A stretch of DNA of 64,000 bases from Escherichia coli (GCF_048403405.1 NZ_CP183129.1), one strand, 5' to 3'; positions 703 to 60,652 are shown, counted from the first letter of the stretch. Notes: generated from the sequence alone by a model not told the origin. A program made the numbers and translations.

Positions 703-1893
703 TTAATTGCTGTTAACCGAGGTGACCAGATTTGCCAGGTATTTATCGGTAATACGCTGGCGCAGGGTCAGGTTTTCGAGAGGAGGCACCGGTGTATAGT
801 CGTAGTCGATATACAGTTTTCCGGCCTTGAGGGTTTCCGCATCGTTGGATTCTTCGCTGAACCAGCAGGTCGCATCCACGATATAGCCGTTTGTTTTCAG
901 CTCACGGAATTTGGCATTGATACCGTCAACGATGTCGCGAATCAGCGTTGCGGTGATGGGCTTGTCCACCGCCCACATGTGCGCCTCAGCCATCGTGTCG
1001 GCCAGCACCTGCGCGGTGCGGGTGTAGTTTTCAAAGAGGAACAGCGGGTCATCAGAGCAGGTACGGTTACCCCAGAAGCGGAAACCGTCGCGGCGAATCA
1101 GCGTAGTGACGCCTGACTCGTTAAGCAGGTCAGCATCGGTGCCGGACTCCTGCAAATCCCAGAATACAGATGCACTGATGCCGGTAACACCGTTCACCCC
1201 AACGTTGGACAGCGTTTTATGCCAGCCCTGCTCCTGGTCGATTTTAGCGCGCAGCCCCAGCGCACGGGCAGTGGCATACGCGGTGGCGGTGGTACTGGTG
1301 ACCGTATCCCATGCGAGGAAATCCGGCCAGATGACCATCAGCTCACGCTGGCTGAAATTCTGGCGGTAGGCTTTCACCTCAGAAATGGTTTTACAGCCCC
1401 ATGCGCTGATATACCCGAAAGCGCGCAGCTTCTGACAGACTGATGCCAGTGCAACAGCCACCTCTTTGGTATCCAGTCCCGGCACGCCGAGAATACGCGG
1501 TTTAACACCGGTTACCGACTCCGCCGCCAGCAGGGCTTTCAGTCCGGTGTACTGACCGTTTTCGTCGGTGGTACCGATGATATTGGAAACGGTCTGCGCA
1601 AGTTTCGTTTCTTCGTCGTCGCCGGTGCCGTCTTCCACGCGCACAACAACGGTGACCGGTTTTGACTGGTCAGCGATGGCCTGTAACGACGCCGCCAGCG
1701 TGCCTTTTTTACCGGCCTTTGCAATTGCGCTCTGCACATTGGTAATCAGCACCGGTTTATTGAGGGGGAAGGTTTCCGCATCTGCATCGCTGGCCGTGCA
1801 GACCATGCCGACAATGGCAGTGGATACGGTGGAAATGACGCGGGTGCCGTCGTTAATCTCCAGCACCTGCACGCCGTGATGATAGTCACTCAT
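703..1893 (-). CDS. FI: Contractile tail sheath protein FI
   Basis: ATG at 1893 (MSDYHHGVQVLEINDG...), GGAG 9 nt upstream; ~396 aa; tail-sheath-like sequence. The supplied ORF extends upstream to a non-ATG start. Confidence 0.9.
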   Translation of the reverse strand: MSDYHHGVQVLEINDGTRVISTVSTAIVGMVCTASDADAETFPLNKPVLITNVQSAIAKAGKKGTLAASLQAIADQSKPVTVVVRVEDGTGDDEETKLAQTVSNIIGTTDENGQYTGLKALLAAESVTGVKPRILGVPGLDTKEVAVALASVCQKLRAFGYISAWGCKTISEVKAYRQNFSQRELMVIWPDFLAWDTVTSTTATAYATARALGLRAKIDQEQGWHKTLSNVGVNGVTGISASVFWDLQESGTDADLLNESGVTTLIRRDGFRFWGNRTCSDDPLFLFENYTRTAQVLADTMAEAHMWAVDKPITATLIRDIVDGINAKFRELKTNGYIVDATCWFSEESNDAETLKAGKLYIDYDYTPVPPLENLTLRQRITDKYLANLVTSVNSN

Positions 1894-2353
1894 CCGTCTA
1901 ACTCCGTGGTTAATGGGTGAGTGGTATTTTCTGTTGTGCAGAGCATGAGACGCTATTTGACCTGGCTGGTCAGTGGATGAAACAACAGATAAAGAAAAGG
2001 CGGACAATCCGCCCGCCTGTCATGATTTGTACTCACTTATTTCCCGACTGACAATTTACATAGCCAAAACGCTATCAAATCTGACAGTCTGCTTTGAGCG
2101 AGGAGCGGAAGTTAAGGGGCGGTTTAGTATCTAACATGATCTATATGAAATAGTGATTCTTGGCGTATTGCTAATACAACCCCGATTTGATGTAACTCTT
2201 GTCCACTTTCATCTAACTTCCTCTTGTTCAGGTTCATTTTTAACTGCTAATATGCAGTATATAAAGGAACATGGGTTTACCGTTGTAAGATGCTGCTGAA
2301 AGGTAAGCATAATTATATTGTTAGGTGTCTTTTTATTTTTAAAGGCTTTAAAC

Positions 2354-3460
2354 ATGTCTAAAACACGCGATGATTTCAGCTCAAAAACTGTAAGAGCTCT
2401 AGCACTACGGGCTGGTTATAGGTGCTCATTCCCCGGTTGTAATCAGCTTACAGTTGGCCCCAGTGATGAATCCTTAACATCTATCACAAATATTGGGGTA
2501 GCTGCGCACATTCATGCCGCAGCTCCTGGGCCATTAGCAAGACGATATGATCCTAATCAAACACCAGATGAAAGGAAAGATATAAATAATGGCATCTGGA
2601 TGTGTGTTAATCACAGCGTTGAAATTGATAGAGATGAAATTAGATATACAGCAGAAATTCTTAAAGAAATGAAGAAAGCCCACGAAGAAGAGATTAAAAA
2701 AGAGGTGAGCAATGGTTCTTCATCAACCAAACATAATGATTTCATTGCAATAGGTATAGACATTATCGTTTTCGGAGAGCTTACCGGAATCTCAACCAAT
2801 GAGTGGACTATAAAATTTGCAAACTTCTTTACTGGCGATTTATCTAAGTTAATATCTTTCAACGAAAGATTCCACTCCATCCCTACCGAAGAAAAATTTA
2901 TTCTAGTTAATCAACTTGGTGAGGGGCGTTTGTTATCAGCACCAATAAAATTAAATAAATTACCAGATAGCTATGAAGTAATCGTCCCTGTTGAAATAGA
3001 CACTCCGCGCATCAATTGCAATAGCCTCCCAATGGATTTAGATATTTTCACGACAGGCGATTTATTTGTAAATAGTTCTGGTGATATAGCTACGATATCG
3101 GGGTTTGAAGCTTTACCACAAAAAATATATACTTCCCTTTCCACCATTAGAGGTGAGATTTATTCCCATCCAACATTGGGTTCCAGAATAAGACAGTTCT
3201 TCCATGACTTTGAAGGAACAATGTGGCTAGACAAATTAGTTAAATTAGAAGTTATACGCTTATCTTGTATACCAATTTTTGATTCAATCACAAAAAACAA
3301 ATACACTCCATTACATTGTGTAAAAAATGTCAAAAATATTCGGGTGATACCAACTGAATATAAAGATAGCAAATTACCTATTGAGTTCACCCTTGATATT
3401 GAAGGTTTCGGCATCTGGTCCAAAGAAATAAGTGTTTTCTCACCTAAATACGATGAATAA
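2354..3460 (+). CDS. Cargo protein with N-terminal HNH-like nuclease motif (C-x4-C ... AAHIHAA ... NGIWMCVNHSVEIDRD) and ~250-aa C-terminal region of unknown function
   Basis: ATG at 2354 preceded by AAAGG; 368 aa; low-GC by eye; sits at the P2 Z/fun variable position between G and FI, on the strand opposite to the late genes. Motif assignment is by eye, not by HMM. Confidence 0.6.
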   Translation: MSKTRDDFSSKTVRALALRAGYRCSFPGCNQLTVGPSDESLTSITNIGVAAHIHAAAPGPLARRYDPNQTPDERKDINNGIWMCVNHSVEIDRDEIRYTAEILKEMKKAHEEEIKKEVSNGSSSTKHNDFIAIGIDIIVFGELTGISTNEWTIKFANFFTGDLSKLISFNERFHSIPTEEKFILVNQLGEGRLLSAPIKLNKLPDSYEVIVPVEIDTPRINCNSLPMDLDIFTTGDLFVNSSGDIATISGFEALPQKIYTSLSTIRGEIYSHPTLGSRIRQFFHDFEGTMWLDKLVKLEVIRLSCIPIFDSITKNKYTPLHCVKNVKNIRVIPTEYKDSKLPIEFTLDIEGFGIWSKEISVFSPKYDE

Positions 3461-3983
3461 AATTGAAGTTCTTGAACCGCTATATTTGGCTCCGGTATTT
3501 ACTCCGTGAGTGGTATCCTAGGGCCCTGTGCGGAGGATTTCATTGTAATGCTCATACGCTGTAGCCAGGTTCATGTTTCTTCAGCAAGGCCATTTGGGCT
3601 AGTGGCCTGCTCCCCATTGCTCCACACAAAAAATTATTCGTTACGTCCGCTCCTGGCACACAGTAGACATCGAGAGACAGCTTCGAGCGATAATCAGAAG
3701 TTCGCAATTGTCATCACCCAAAAGTTGTTTATAACTTGTAGCAAGGTGCATTGTTCAACGTTGAGTTGGTCAAGTTCAGTTAATGATCGGACGATATCTC
3801 ACTCTGCCCAATAGCACATCTGTTTTACGGGAAGTGAGTTTCAACATCACGAGCTTTGTTAGTAAACATCACTTATTTATTAAGAATATGTTTCATAGAA
3901 CAGGGCCGGAGAACTTAATTTCATATTCTAAAAAGTGATGCGCAGACATCACTTTAAACTTTTTAAAGCGCGAAAACCCTACG

Positions 3984-4985
3984 TCAGAATTTGACAGTAG
4001 GAACGGTTGGCCAGATTCTAGCAATAGACTTAAACATAGTCTCCACAATATATTCGAGAACCTCATCATCAGGCTCTTTCATTAATGCTTTTACTTTATT
4101 TATTCTATCCTGAAGTGAAGGGTGAGATTTTGAAAAACCCCAGTTGTTTTTACCTAACATAGTAACGCTGAATAATGCACAGTATATAGAAAGTCTTCTT
4201 TTCCTGCTCACCAACACACGGTCATACATAGACTCTTCACAGTAATTATCTATATGGTCAAGGATGAATTTATTTGCAAACTCATCACATGAGAACTCTT
4301 CATTATGAGCTTGTTCTTGTGTGAATTCATTCATATCATAACTGGTACCTTCCTGCTGATGAATGATATGTCGGACTTCATGCAAAAATGCCCAAGCAGC
4401 AGCAATAATTGCTAATTCAGCTGTTGCTCTTTTAACTGGTTCGATTTTACTGTCAGGCATGGTGCCAGGTTCAGGAATTCCTATTGGTAGTGGTTTTTCA
4501 TCCGGTACCTCATCTTTAGCCGTGTTTTCAAAAGCGCAGATTAACTGTTCAAAGTTTACGAAGTCTGCCGAACTGAAATCAGCAAGTTCTTCCTGTAGCT
4601 CCTCGAGTAAAACATGTAATTCTGACTCGGTTGAGACTAATGATATTTTCTTTGAGTCAAAAAGATCTAAAATAGAATCCCTTTTATCGATAATGTCTTC
4701 AATTTTTTTATTTTGCTCAGTGTTTATTGCTTCGTAGCCCGCCATTGCAGCAAATGTTCCTATCCAGAACGTGCGCAAAACACGATGATTGAAGCGGATA
4801 AATCGATACATCCCCGCATCAAAAATAAATTTACCGTCTGTATGATTATCGCTATGATTTTGGAAGGTCATGTTAAATTTAGACCAGAACTCATCCAGTT
4901 CATTCTGACGCTCTGGAATAGAGGCTAAAAACATTTTTCTTACGCTGTCCTGAACTGTTTTATCTTCATTATGCTCTTCAAACAT
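3984..4985 (-). CDS. Cargo protein with HExxH motif (AWAFLHEVRHIIH), possible zinc metallopeptidase-like protein; acidic N-terminal half
   Basis: ORF 3984..5045; preferred start is ATG at 4985 with GGTGAG upstream (333 aa); alternative TTG at 5045 (353 aa). Convergent with the HNH-like gene; low-GC by eye. Confidence 0.55.
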   Translation of the reverse strand: MFEEHNEDKTVQDSVRKMFLASIPERQNELDEFWSKFNMTFQNHSDNHTDGKFIFDAGMYRFIRFNHRVLRTFWIGTFAAMAGYEAINTEQNKKIEDIIDKRDSILDLFDSKKISLVSTESELHVLLEELQEELADFSSADFVNFEQLICAFENTAKDEVPDEKPLPIGIPEPGTMPDSKIEPVKRATAELAIIAAAWAFLHEVRHIIHQQEGTSYDMNEFTQEQAHNEEFSCDEFANKFILDHIDNYCEESMYDRVLVSRKRRLSIYCALFSVTMLGKNNWGFSKSHPSLQDRINKVKALMKEPDDEVLEYIVETMFKSIARIWPTVPTVKF

Positions 4986-5248
4986 TTGCTCACCTATATT
5001 GCTGTTAATTTTATCTAATGATGAACCGAGTGGGTTGTTTACCAAGCCTCATGTTACATGTTTTTTGCTTTCCGAATATTTAAGCGTTAGAAGCAAGTAG
5101 GAAAAACGTAGAGCAGTTAACCAAGGCTTTCTACAGGCAGATTAACATAACTTGGTCAGGAATGTCCGCTCTTGGCACATAGCGGACTGTCAGATTAGGC
5201 TTTACTCTGTGCTATAGATATGTAAGCTCACACCAGAGATCATACAAC

Positions 5249-5776
5249 TTATTGCGGCATTTCCGGCCATTCGGGATTTGCAGGATCCACACGACTGACC
5301 AGAACGCTGTAGCGTTCCCATGCTTCCAGTCGGCTGCGTTCCTCATCCGTCGCCATATTCAGCCTGACAGCGCGTTCCAGCGGCAAAATCACGGATTCAG
5401 CTTCGGAAAGTAAAGCTGCCTTTTGTGATTCTGCCTGTTGCTCCTGTTCATCTGCCGTATAAATCCGCTTAATCACGGCACCATCCTTAAACATCCATTT
5501 ACCTGAGTCATCAGCACGTCGGTTGGAGGTAATATCAGGAACCTCGACAACGCTGAAACCTTCAGGGTTAAGCGTTGAAGCATCTCTGGTGATGCCGACA
5601 ATTATATTATTCTCGTCGTAAACAATCTTTATCGTGTCTTCCTGAAAATTACTTACTTCCTCATACCAGTTTTTTCCCTCTTCGGACCATAACCAGATAA
5701 CATCAAAATTTTTTGTCAGTTGATATTGGGCAACAGTTTTTGGATTACCCGCAGTAATATTTTTTAAATGCTGCAT
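5249..5776 (-). CDS. G: Tail fibre assembly protein gpG
   Basis: 175 aa, [19 protein letters not shown]..., immediately downstream of H as in P2. Confidence 0.85.
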
Positions 5777-58633: not shown

Positions 58634-58668
58634 CTCTTCTGTCTCATTGTGTACATCCTAAAGGCAAA

Positions 58669-58695
58669 ATGCCAGCCCGATCGGCTGGCATTTTT
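58669..58695. terminator. Bidirectional terminator between cspD and macB
   Basis: TGCCAGCC-CGATC-GGCTGGCA hairpin flanked by an A-run and TTTTT. Confidence 0.75.
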
Positions 58696-58705
58696 ATCTC
58701 AAAAA

Positions 58706-60652
58706 TTACTCTCGTGCCAGAGCATCTACTGGATCCAGTCGTGCCGCATTTCGTGCGGGTAACCAGCCAAATAAAATCCCGGTGACCGTCGAGCAGAGAA
58801 ACGCCAGCAGCAGCGCCAACGGTGAAAAACCAATCTCCCAGCCGGGTAAGAAAAGCTGCAAGGTGAAAGCAATTAACAGTGACAGTGTTATTCCCAACGC
58901 GCCACCGACCAGGCAAACCAGCACGGCTTCGATCAGGAACTGTTGCAACACATCACTTGCTCGCGCACCTACAGCCATGCGAATGCCAATTTCCCGCGTC
59001 CGCTCGGTCACTGACACCAGCATAATATTCATTACACCAATACCGCCCACCACTAGCGAAATCACTGCCACCAGCGTCAGAAACAGTTGTAAAGTACGTG
59101 TGGTCTTTTCAACGGTTTTCAAGACGCCGTCCATGTTCCAGGTAAAGAAATCCTTCTTACCGTGGCGCAGTGAAAGTAAACGCGTGAGTTGCTGTTCCGC
59201 CTCGGCGCTGTCAAATCCTTCTTTCACCCTGACAGTAATGGAGTTCAGCCACGACTGGCCCATAACTCGCCCGGACATAGTGCTGTAAGGTAGCCAGACA
59301 CGCAGCACTTTACTGCTACCAAACATCGACTGTTTTTCTTCCGCCACACCAATGACTCTGGCGGGCATATTGCCGACCAGAATCACCTCGCCAACCACAT
59401 CTGCTTTATGGGGGAAAAGCTGGCGGCGAGTATTACTGTCGAGAACCACGACCTGCGCACGACCGTTCAGCTGCTCCTGATTAAAGGTGTTCCCTTCACT
59501 GAAGGTCATGCCATAGACATTAAAATAATCGCCGCTCACGCCATTGGCACTGGCAGCCACATCAACATTGTTATAACGCAGGCGCAGGTTTTGCGAGACG
59601 GCAGGTGTGGCTGAGGCGACCCACGGTTGTTTTTGGATGGCGATTAAGTCATCGTACTTCAGCGCCTGCTGATATTGCGGATCGTCATCGCCAAAATCTT
59701 TCCCGGGATAGACATCAATAGTATTCGTACCAATAGAACGAATATCCGCCAGCACCATTTGTTTGGCGGCGTCGCCGACCACAACAATGGAAACCACCGA
59801 CGCAATACCGATAATAATCCCCAGCATGGTCAGTAAAGTACGCATTTTATTCGCTGCCAGCGCCCGCCATGCCATCGTCAGCGCCTCGTTAAAACCACTG
59901 ACAAACTGCCGCCAGCCAGACGCCGTGTTGACAACAGGTTCCGTCCCGCCAGCAACATTCACTTTTTCAATGGCGGGAGGATTGCGCACAATTTCACCGT
60001 CGCGAATTTCGATCACCCGCTCGGCCTGAGCAGCGACCTGCGGATCGTGGGTAACGATAATCACCGTATGCCCGCGATCGCGCAGCTGATGCAGGATCGC
60101 CATCACCTCTTCGCCAGAATGGCTGTCCAGTGCGCCGGTTGGTTCATCGGCAAGAATTACCTGACCGCCGTTCATCAATGCCCGCGCGATGCTGACGCGC
60201 TGTTGCTGACCACCCGAAAGCTGTGCCGGATAATACTCTGTACGGTCTTCCAGCCCCAGTCGTTGCAGCAACTCCTGGGCACGAAGCAGCCGCTGTTTCC
60301 GCTCAAGACCGGCATAGACGGCGGGTACTTCAACGTTCTGCTCGGCGGTTAAATGCGAAAGCAAATGGTAACGCTGGAAAATAAAGCCGAAATGCTCGCG
60401 GCGTAGTTGCGCCAGCGCATCGGCGTCCAGCGTGGCAACATCCTGACCGGCTACGCGATAGGTGCCGCTGGTGGCCTTATCCAGGCAGCCGAGAATATTC
60501 ATCAGGGTCGATTTACCGGAACCCGAAGCGCCGACAATCGCCACCATCTCACCAGCATAAATATCGAGGCTGATGCCCTTCAGCACCTCAACCTGCTCAT
60601 CACCGGCAGGATAGCTGCGACGAATATCCTTTAATTCGAGCAAGGGCGTCAT
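58706..60652 (-). CDS. macB: Macrolide export ABC transporter ATPase/permease MacB
   Basis: 648 aa, Walker [11 protein letters not shown]-terminal permease. Confidence 0.9.

Follow-up and report, generated by a model that had tools for sequence, protein, structure and literature searches.

The cargo genes and the mosaic ancestry of the spacer

In the 64,000-nucleotide stretch of Escherichia coli DNA analysed here (NZ_CP183129.1, assembly GCF_048403405.1; hereafter the window), a P2-like prophage carries cargo in its Z/fun hotspot, between the tail genes FI and G, and our subject is the DNA that separates the two genes of this cargo. The genes, one encoding an HNH-type protein (plus strand) and the other a Lit-family protein (minus strand), converge on a 523-bp spacer (3461-3983) that is delimited by their stop codons at 3458-3460 and 3984-3986, where a preliminary description of the sequence had put them. 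Over its full length, the spacer included, the cargo matches the Z-region of phage P2-EC46 (AJ512680) at 100% identity; that record carries no annotation between the two open reading frames (ORFs) and has the cargo enclosed by a 'left' and a 'right inverted repeat'. A BLASTN-type comparison with P2-like phages and E. coli genomes, which the preliminary description had named as a check, found this cargo in five of 5,426 complete E. coli genomes, all five identical; it is only the hotspot flanks, not the cargo, that ~1,130 of the genomes have in common. The spacer is real, non-coding and not a gene, and the preliminary description, which had singled it out as a non-coding interval of distinct composition, was mostly right and is confirmed in part.

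The two cargo genes do not belong together. Homologues of the HNH protein (81-84% identity) are found at three loci without Lit in the recovered DNA; one of these (L007) has other genes on its flanks, and the other two (L013 and L014) are short contigs holding the HNH cassette only. Conversely, Lit homologues (55-87% identity) occur without the HNH gene in L005, L006 and L008-L012, and HNH and Lit do not consistently co-occur. Since each gene is found apart from the other elsewhere, the two are independent cassettes and not one two-gene system.

The spacer divides along the same line. On its left side, window 2087-3571 aligns with L013 at 85% and 2123-3571 with L014 at 80%; the HNH proteins of these two unrelated assemblies are 84% and 81% identical to that of the window, and the common stretch runs up to 3571. 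One HNH homologue, next to the replication gene A of a different P2-like phage, has only the ORF in common, and 50 nt follow that ORF. On its right side, window 3685-5176 aligns end to end at 90% with L005, where the Lit protein is 87% identical and the neighbours are a reverse transcriptase, a Schlafen/AlbA_2 protein and quorum-sensing genes. By alignment, then, the spacer is a mosaic of blocks of different ancestry, and its two large blocks diverge at a near-neutral rate, as detailed below for each.

The HNH-side block contains the decayed right end of an IS3-family insertion sequence (IS). Transposase 3' ends in 68 plasmid records match 3488-3574 on the minus strand (best 84% over 88 nt, E = 3e-16), nearly all of the matches listed being annotated as IS3-family transposase; the suggestion that the spacer holds the remnant of a displaced gene is therefore borne out for this segment. 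In translation the relic reads MNLATAYEHYNE, then, after a frameshift, NPPHRALGYHSRSKYRS, and aligns with the transposase C-terminus: the last ~30 codons of orfB are recognisable, frameshifted and internally deleted. A terminal-repeat-like TGAACCGCTATAT at 3473-3485 resembles the reference IS terminus and is followed by a deletion of ~37 nt; relative to this terminus, the relic has the correct orientation for an IS3-family transposase. Unlike an intact element, it retains ~100-130 bp and has neither left end, orfA nor catalytic core: an inverted-repeat scan found no second IS end in the spacer, and no rve domain or DDE core gave a Pfam match in any of the six frames. With one IS end only, it is therefore a relic and not a member element. 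Its secure end is at 3574 and its probable end at 3587. Presumably it derives from the IS2-like subgroup, judging by the IS2 transposase C-terminus.

The relic travels with the HNH gene in three lineages, and it is old, being common to HNH cassettes that differ by 15-20%. Its identity to L013 and L014 (75.7% and 67.6%) equals that of the HNH third codon positions (78.5% and 68.2%), so that the relic is a long-standing passenger of the gene and drifts neutrally. As for the HNH protein itself, its HNH domain is N-terminal, and the C-terminal half gives a weak gpW/gp25-like match (Pfam Sheath_initiator, E = 1e-3) and is named DUF2634 or GPW/gp25 by RefSeq; the protein would join a nuclease to a baseplate-like domain, and its gene lies among the tail genes of a myophage. 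The same length is kept in at least 275 relatives across Proteobacteria.

The Lit-side block behaves alike. The 3' flank of Lit (3700-3983) is 86.6% identical to that of L005, and Lit third codon positions are 86.5% identical; the flank is therefore neutral, without detectable constraint. The sole feature with a signal in it is the hairpin at 3932-3955, which the preliminary description had cited among several inverted repeats. This one is real and above chance (9-bp stem, 3932-3940/3947-3955), while the others (8-12 nt with long spacers) are such as chance gives. The hairpin folds at -10 to -10.8 kcal/mol (z = -3.9 on the plus and -3.1 on the minus strand) and is followed by UUUUUAG on the Lit strand and by T-rich runs on the other; its stem is moderately G+C-rich (3 GC pairs) and is kept in L005, where change is confined to the loop. 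From these features we predict it to be the intrinsic terminator of Lit, and it may act also on transcripts from the HNH side. Upstream of Lit, the 5' flank (window 5046-5163, L005 4819-5000) has 92% identity, against 86.5% at third positions, which suggests a constrained promoter or regulatory region there.

The mosaic also accounts for the composition of the spacer. It had been described as not AT-rich, and this holds for its left 243 bp (3461-3703, 48.1% G+C), where the higher value comes from the IS relic (47.8%) and the palindromes described below (50.9%); the remainder (3704-3983, 37.5%) is as AT-rich as the Lit (37.4%) and HNH (36.5%) genes.

Palindromes at the cargo edges and inside the spacer

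Two related palindromes mark the borders of the cargo. Both have a 7-bp stem (GTCCGCT / AGCGGAC, arms that are found in nearly all copies) and a 10-nt loop, and they differ in the loop, which reads yyTGGCACrr in the L type and nnTCGCTCan in the R type. The outer copies form the inner edges of the inverted repeats annotated in the P2 Z-region records (AJ512676-AJ512682), and the units found inside the spacer belong to the same family; those records annotate the outer repeats only, and the internal double copy, the L and R types and the occurrence outside P2 are unannotated there. In 79 and 88 records of P2-like phages with other cargo, similarity to the window begins at 5161 (G side) and ends at 2109-2114 (FI side) in most of the matches listed. 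The variable cargo therefore sits exactly between two palindromes.

At other loci, an L and an R palindrome occur as a pair joined by an 18-nt linker, and the same arrangement, much worn, lies in the spacer. A covariance model built from 21 independent viral-contig junctions and scanned over the whole window gave only three strong matches: one at each cargo edge (5160-5242, E = 2.8e-6; 2052-2114, E = 2.8e-5) and the third in the spacer (Table 1). Elsewhere in the 64 kb, only chance-level matches were found. A weak match on the minus strand at 58667-58727 (17 bits, E = 0.011) contains TGGCACGA and a GC-rich hairpin; it lies away from the prophage hotspot and probably represents a terminator-like hairpin of no relation to the palindromes.

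The spacer junction consists of an L unit, which we call Y, and a decayed R unit, X, separated by 7 nt, so that the linker is 11 nt shorter than usual. The ~40 nt upstream of Y (3604-3644) are shared with L-type copies in L006 and L005. The junction as a whole is 79% identical over 61 nt to one that lies 3' of a Lit homologue in L006, and 90% identical over 51 nt to one in E. coli R2. By these comparisons, the repeat in the spacer is the same as the repeats at the hotspot edges.

A further hairpin (Y0), which folds at -15.1 kcal/mol (z = -1.5), stands where an L-type palindrome closes the HNH cassette in L013 and L014; its L013 counterpart is ATCCGTT tctggcactt AGTGGAC (1623-1646). Y0 is tentatively taken as the counterpart of the terminal palindrome of the HNH cassette, tentatively because the covariance model misses it. 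An extension of the IS relic across this region to ~3700 ('ATSPNGLAEE', 3577-3607) was rejected, as the segment fits the L-type hairpin of L013 and L014 more closely, and likewise the parts upstream of the L-type copies in L006 and L005.

On this evidence the HNH cassette would extend from 2087 to 3610/3668 and the Lit cassette from 3676 to 5187, both with an R unit towards FI and an L unit towards G. The same R...L bounds enclose the HNH cassette in L013, inside different flanking DNA, and the Lit cassette in L005 and L006. The preliminary description had offered a recombination scar as one origin of the spacer, and this proved apt: the spacer holds the junction of two separately descended cassettes, with worn copies of the hotspot boundary palindrome.

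Table 1. Position and strand of the features of the cargo region in the window.
Feature	Position	Strand	Remarks
FI, tail sheath gene	703-1893	-	Hotspot flank
R-type palindrome, TTCCGCT cctcgctcaa AGCAGAC	2087-2110	-	Inner edge of annotated right inverted repeat; FI-side cargo border, left end of HNH cassette
HNH nuclease gene (cassette 1), 368 aa	2354-3460	+	PADLOC PDC-M68A, E = 1e-23; HNH effector models
Decayed right end of IS3-family element	3473-3587	-	Nucleotide and translated matches; part of HNH cassette
Hairpin Y0, GGCCATT tgggct AGTGGCC	3588-3610	+	Position of the L-type palindrome that closes the HNH cassette in L013/L014 (tentative)
Degenerate L-linker-R junction	3641-3703	+	Between the cassettes; covariance model E = 7.9e-5
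L unit Y, GTCCGCT cctggcacac AGTAGAC	3645-3668	+	Spacer junction
Decayed R unit X, TTCTGAT tatcgctcga AGCTGTC	3699-3676	-	Spacer junction
Non-coding 3' flank of Lit cassette	3704-3931	-	End of the block aligned with L005; G+C as in Lit
Intrinsic-terminator-like hairpin, AAAGTGATG cgcaga CATCACTTT	3932-3955	both	9-bp stem, 29 nt after the Lit stop
Lit-family (peptidase U49) phage-exclusion gene (cassette 2)	3984-4985/5045	-	PADLOC Lit, E = 9.5e-10; Pfam Peptidase_U49; RefSeq name
L-type palindrome, GTCCGCT cttggcacat AGCGGAC	5164-5187	+	Inner edge of annotated left inverted repeat; G-side border, right end of Lit cassette
G, tail-fibre assembly gene	5249-5776	-	Hotspot flank

Three known kinds of site were considered for the palindromes and set aside. 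The site of the Ogr/delta activator does not fit, the P2 record placing the pF activator site ~100 nt nearer FI than the R palindrome; a sigma-54 promoter is at odds with the TGGCAC-to-GC spacing, read from the sequence; and the V-operon terminator is annotated in P2 as a different hairpin deeper in the cargo, the palindromes themselves having no U-runs.

Intact junctions of an L palindrome, the 18-nt linker and an R palindrome were found at four other places. In Escherichia phage 899 (L018), the junction (5254-5327, 89 bits) lies between two cargo genes. In L006 (82 bits), it lies just 3' of a 74%-identical Lit gene, in an island with an integrase and an OLD-family nuclease gene. L005 has one between other cassettes, and E. 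coli R2 (L004) has one upstream of an FRG-domain gene; a decayed copy immediately downstream accounts for the 51-bp BLAST match to the spacer.

Two of these loci have features of their own. The cargo genes of phage 899 (PV533660, 4108-6819) encode proteins of 348 and 461 aa with no significant PADLOC match, and have the appearance of two single-gene cassettes, both uncharacterised, that occupy the same hotspot. L005 (202-6341 of a Logan ERR4229088 contig) is a non-P2 locus that adjoins LuxI/LuxR genes and holds at least three palindrome-bounded units, namely a reverse transcriptase with a 251-aa partner, a Schlafen/AlbA_2 protein and Lit; it is an island made up of cassettes of this kind.

The exact junction pattern was also present in 34 viral contigs, representing 29 distinct variants, most of them away from P2 tail genes; in 21 of the 29 the 18-nt linker joins L and R. 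Neighbouring genes are of kinds typical of defence and encode AIPR, LA2681-like HEPN, HNH and DUF4145 proteins, reverse transcriptases and a nucleoside phosphorylase. One contig with two junctions (L023, 7457-7654) also holds isrK and the C4 antisense RNA with its a1/b1 targets, which marks it as the immunity region of a P1/P7-like or related prophage; the junction repeat therefore occurs in a non-P2 phage type as well.

Searches for a protein or an RNA gene in the spacer

That the spacer holds no convincing ORF had been noted before, and our searches agree. None of its six frames has a significant Pfam match, the best (TetR_C_8, E = 0.041) being under its cut-off. An open frame of 102 aa with a GTG start does exist at 3506-3814. 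It had been judged unlike a real protein and indeed lacks any significant Pfam or PADLOC match (sole match DUF3973, E = 0.84), runs antisense to the transposase relic, is unannotated by the depositors and by RefSeq, and spans three blocks of differing ancestry, crossing two borders (near 3571/3603 and 3685/3703). The alternative 51-aa ORF (3783-3938) is broken in the closest relative, L005, by a 1-nt indel that shifts the frame. The reading of either short ORF as a protein-coding gene is effectively refuted. A pseudogene of a third defence protein was likewise dropped, as six-frame Pfam searches gave nothing significant and tblastn gave noise apart from the IS relic.

It had also been proposed that the spacer encodes a small regulatory or antitoxin RNA, which would control one or both of the flanking effectors. 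The setting lends itself to such a role: both neighbours are potentially toxic, convergent transcription across the spacer is possible, the hairpin at 3932-3955 is strong and has T-runs on both strands, and more distant Lit homologues all have a non-coding 3' flank of 200-550 nt. The sequence gave it no support. A search of Rfam 15 at E <= 10 returned no match in the interval, a consensus scan found no promoter-like site inside 3461-3983, and the whole interval folds no better than its shuffles (z = -0.74 on the plus and +0.38 on the minus strand). The blocks that such an RNA would have to span differ in ancestry and travel with different genes, and the two largest diverge at the rate of third codon positions. 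The 3' flanks of the Lit homologues are unalignable with one another apart from the palindromes, which are all that an eight-locus alignment has in common, and tandem repeats of the type III antitoxin kind are absent from the interval. The lone hairpin sits where a Lit terminator is expected to be, just after the stop codon. We therefore regard an RNA gene in the spacer as very improbable. A tRNA or tmRNA remnant was also discarded: ARAGORN found none, and the likeness of 3695-3720 to a tRNA 3' end was by eye only.

The spacer as a probable seam between defence cassettes

The best explanation of these data is that the spacer is a seam, where two independently mobile one-gene defence cassettes have been stacked tail to tail in the Z/fun hotspot; we consider this likely. 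From left to right, the spacer would comprise the 3' end of the HNH cassette with its neutral IS3-family relic, the terminal hairpin of that cassette, a worn L-linker-R double palindrome of the kind that separates cassettes in arrays, and the neutral 3' flank of the Lit cassette with the Lit terminator. The palindromic units, 24-70 nt long and near-identical, would serve as crossover points at which cargos are replaced or added. The simplest and likeliest route would be homologous or phage-recombinase-mediated exchange between these short repeat copies, the spacer being a by-product of one such exchange whose sole working part now would be the Lit terminator.

What the palindromes do has to be judged from their wider occurrence. 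The L palindrome pattern (20 specified bases) was found at at least 120 loci in the species-genome collection, against ~0.5 matches expected by chance (an estimate for 20 specified bases over ~6e11 positions), and several genomes hold 4-20 or more copies. Among Enterobacterales it occurs in Enterobacter, Pantoea, Erwinia, Mixta, Cedecea, Rahnella, Citrobacter, Serratia and others, usually in several copies. Metagenome-assembled genomes (MAGs) of Hyphomicrobiales have dozens of copies each; there, ~21 nt beyond the L unit, comes another hairpin whose stem is the same but whose loop differs (ttcgggggtaa). Chromosomal copies lie between ordinary genes, including those for GAPDH, LysR regulators, DinB and a rhomboid protease, while the E. 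coli copies seen are in prophage or island cargo regions. The palindrome family has no Rfam match, and a literature search that did not take in the two papers likeliest to describe the repeats found neither the palindrome sequence nor 'P2-EC46'.

Some of these copies were inspected individually. In Hyphomicrobium MAG contigs (L110, L112, L106, L063), copies with the stem GTCCGCT...AGCGGAC and the loop TGGCAC stand 1-3 kb apart in one orientation between housekeeping genes. The same palindrome was seen in Pantoea (L167), Chimaeribacter (L146) and Cedecea (L096); dispersed repeat families do not usually have one identical stem in both Alpha- and Gammaproteobacteria. Tandem L palindromes in Citrobacter youngae (L076, 8977-9090), with a repeated 15-nt spacer (…AGCGAAC tgtcataggtggaag GTCCGCT…), suggest local amplification of the unit.

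Being extragenic, dispersed and multi-copy, with two linked unit types, the palindromes are therefore a dispersed repeat resembling repetitive extragenic palindromes (REP) and the bacterial interspersed mosaic elements (BIME) built from them. Like these, they are short, imperfect palindromes that stand at gene ends and are paired through a linker of fixed length. They might then act mainly on transcripts or chromatin (protection of mRNA 3' ends, arrest of read-through, binding of gyrase or of the integration host factor, IHF), the coincidence with cassette borders being secondary. The position at gene 3' ends, the scatter between ordinary genes and the folding of intact copies (-11.3 kcal/mol, z = -2.8 for the L palindrome at 5164-5187) are all in keeping with such a role. 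However, loops and linker are conserved in sequence as well as the stems, the copies have no U-tracts, the breakpoints between cargo and backbone fall exactly on palindromes and the spacer copy no longer folds. The occurrence of one stem in both Enterobacterales and Hyphomicrobiales also departs from what is usual in REP families, and we take the palindrome sequence to be unrelated to the E. coli REP consensus. A mainly REP-like function is in our judgement unlikely.

A different possibility is that the palindromes are the sites of a dedicated site-specific recombinase, with L and R made heterospecific by their asymmetric loops, in an integron-like system or one of cassette exchange. Site-specific recombination is reportedly what Nilsson, Karlsson and Haggard-Ljungquist, the depositors of the P2 Z-region records, proposed in 2004, to judge by the title of their paper. 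The two types do combine common arms with different conserved 10-nt centres, they keep a fixed polarity in arrays with a linker that is nearly constant at 18 nt, and in different genomic contexts every cassette has an R site at one end and an L site at the other. Yet the loci inspected have no recombinase gene as a constant neighbour, and in Hyphomicrobium and Enterobacterales the palindrome is scattered among housekeeping genes, as an ordinary repeat family would be.

Integron cassettes are likewise promoter-poor single-gene units of unrelated function, arrayed with imperfect palindromes of fixed polarity between them. Here, in contrast, there are two palindromes per junction, where integrons have one; the attC core motifs (an inverse core ending in AAC and a core starting with GTT) are absent as read from the sequence; and the palindromes are conserved in sequence besides structure. 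No integron integrase or attI site was found in the G-FI hotspot or adjacent to the junctions in L005, phage 899 and E. coli R2, and the integrase of L006 is of phage/P4 type. A dedicated enzyme is thus less likely than homologous or phage-recombinase exchange, and we hold it improbable.

In a related form, the ~70-nt L-linker-R unit would be the working site of an undescribed cassette-exchange system with two heterospecific palindromes of common arms and different centres. If this unlikely proposal were true, single-gene defence cassettes would be put together and reshuffled by that system in the P2 Z/fun hotspot, and likewise in further prophage and island hotspots of Enterobacterales; the spacer in the window would then be the fossil of one integration of this sort.

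The cassettes also resemble phage morons and the linkers at module borders known from the modular theory of phage evolution, in being independent AT-rich transcription units between late-gene operons, with short conserved sequences at the borders where exchange takes place. Classical morons are described as having a promoter and a terminator at their ends, and not a dispersed palindromic repeat.

Several points weigh against the seam with exchange at the palindromes. Y and X, like the copy on the FI side, have lost the ability to fold into stable hairpins, so that the junction in this spacer may be inert and the seam as a whole therefore probably is so today, the Lit terminator excepted. Neither a recombinase nor an act of recombination was seen. 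In many genomes, copies of this palindrome stand between ordinary genes of the chromosome, and its position at cassette borders could reflect preferred insertion into intergenic DNA and not a role in exchange. Its stems are conserved mostly in sequence; compensatory changes were counted in 17 cells against 3.9 in shuffles, in an alignment fitted to the model, and this count does not separate structure from recent spread. The reading of Y0 comes from a single alignment of three sequences.

As a seam, the spacer itself becomes ordinary, dead DNA at a join, and drops out as a candidate regulatory RNA. Its analysis resolves HNH and Lit into two separate one-gene cassettes and shows that stacked cargos have the palindrome in double copy at their join. 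The main study of P2 and P4 hotspots makes no mention of repeats and leaves the mechanism of cargo exchange open (PMC9122126, Discussion). A defined element of 24-70 nt at the breakpoints makes this question testable by simple genetics. In the prediction of defence systems, the palindrome can also serve as a practical marker by which the multi-gene cargo of a hotspot is divided into independent units, and the recurrent palindromic cassette boundary is the one lead from this locus that is worth following.

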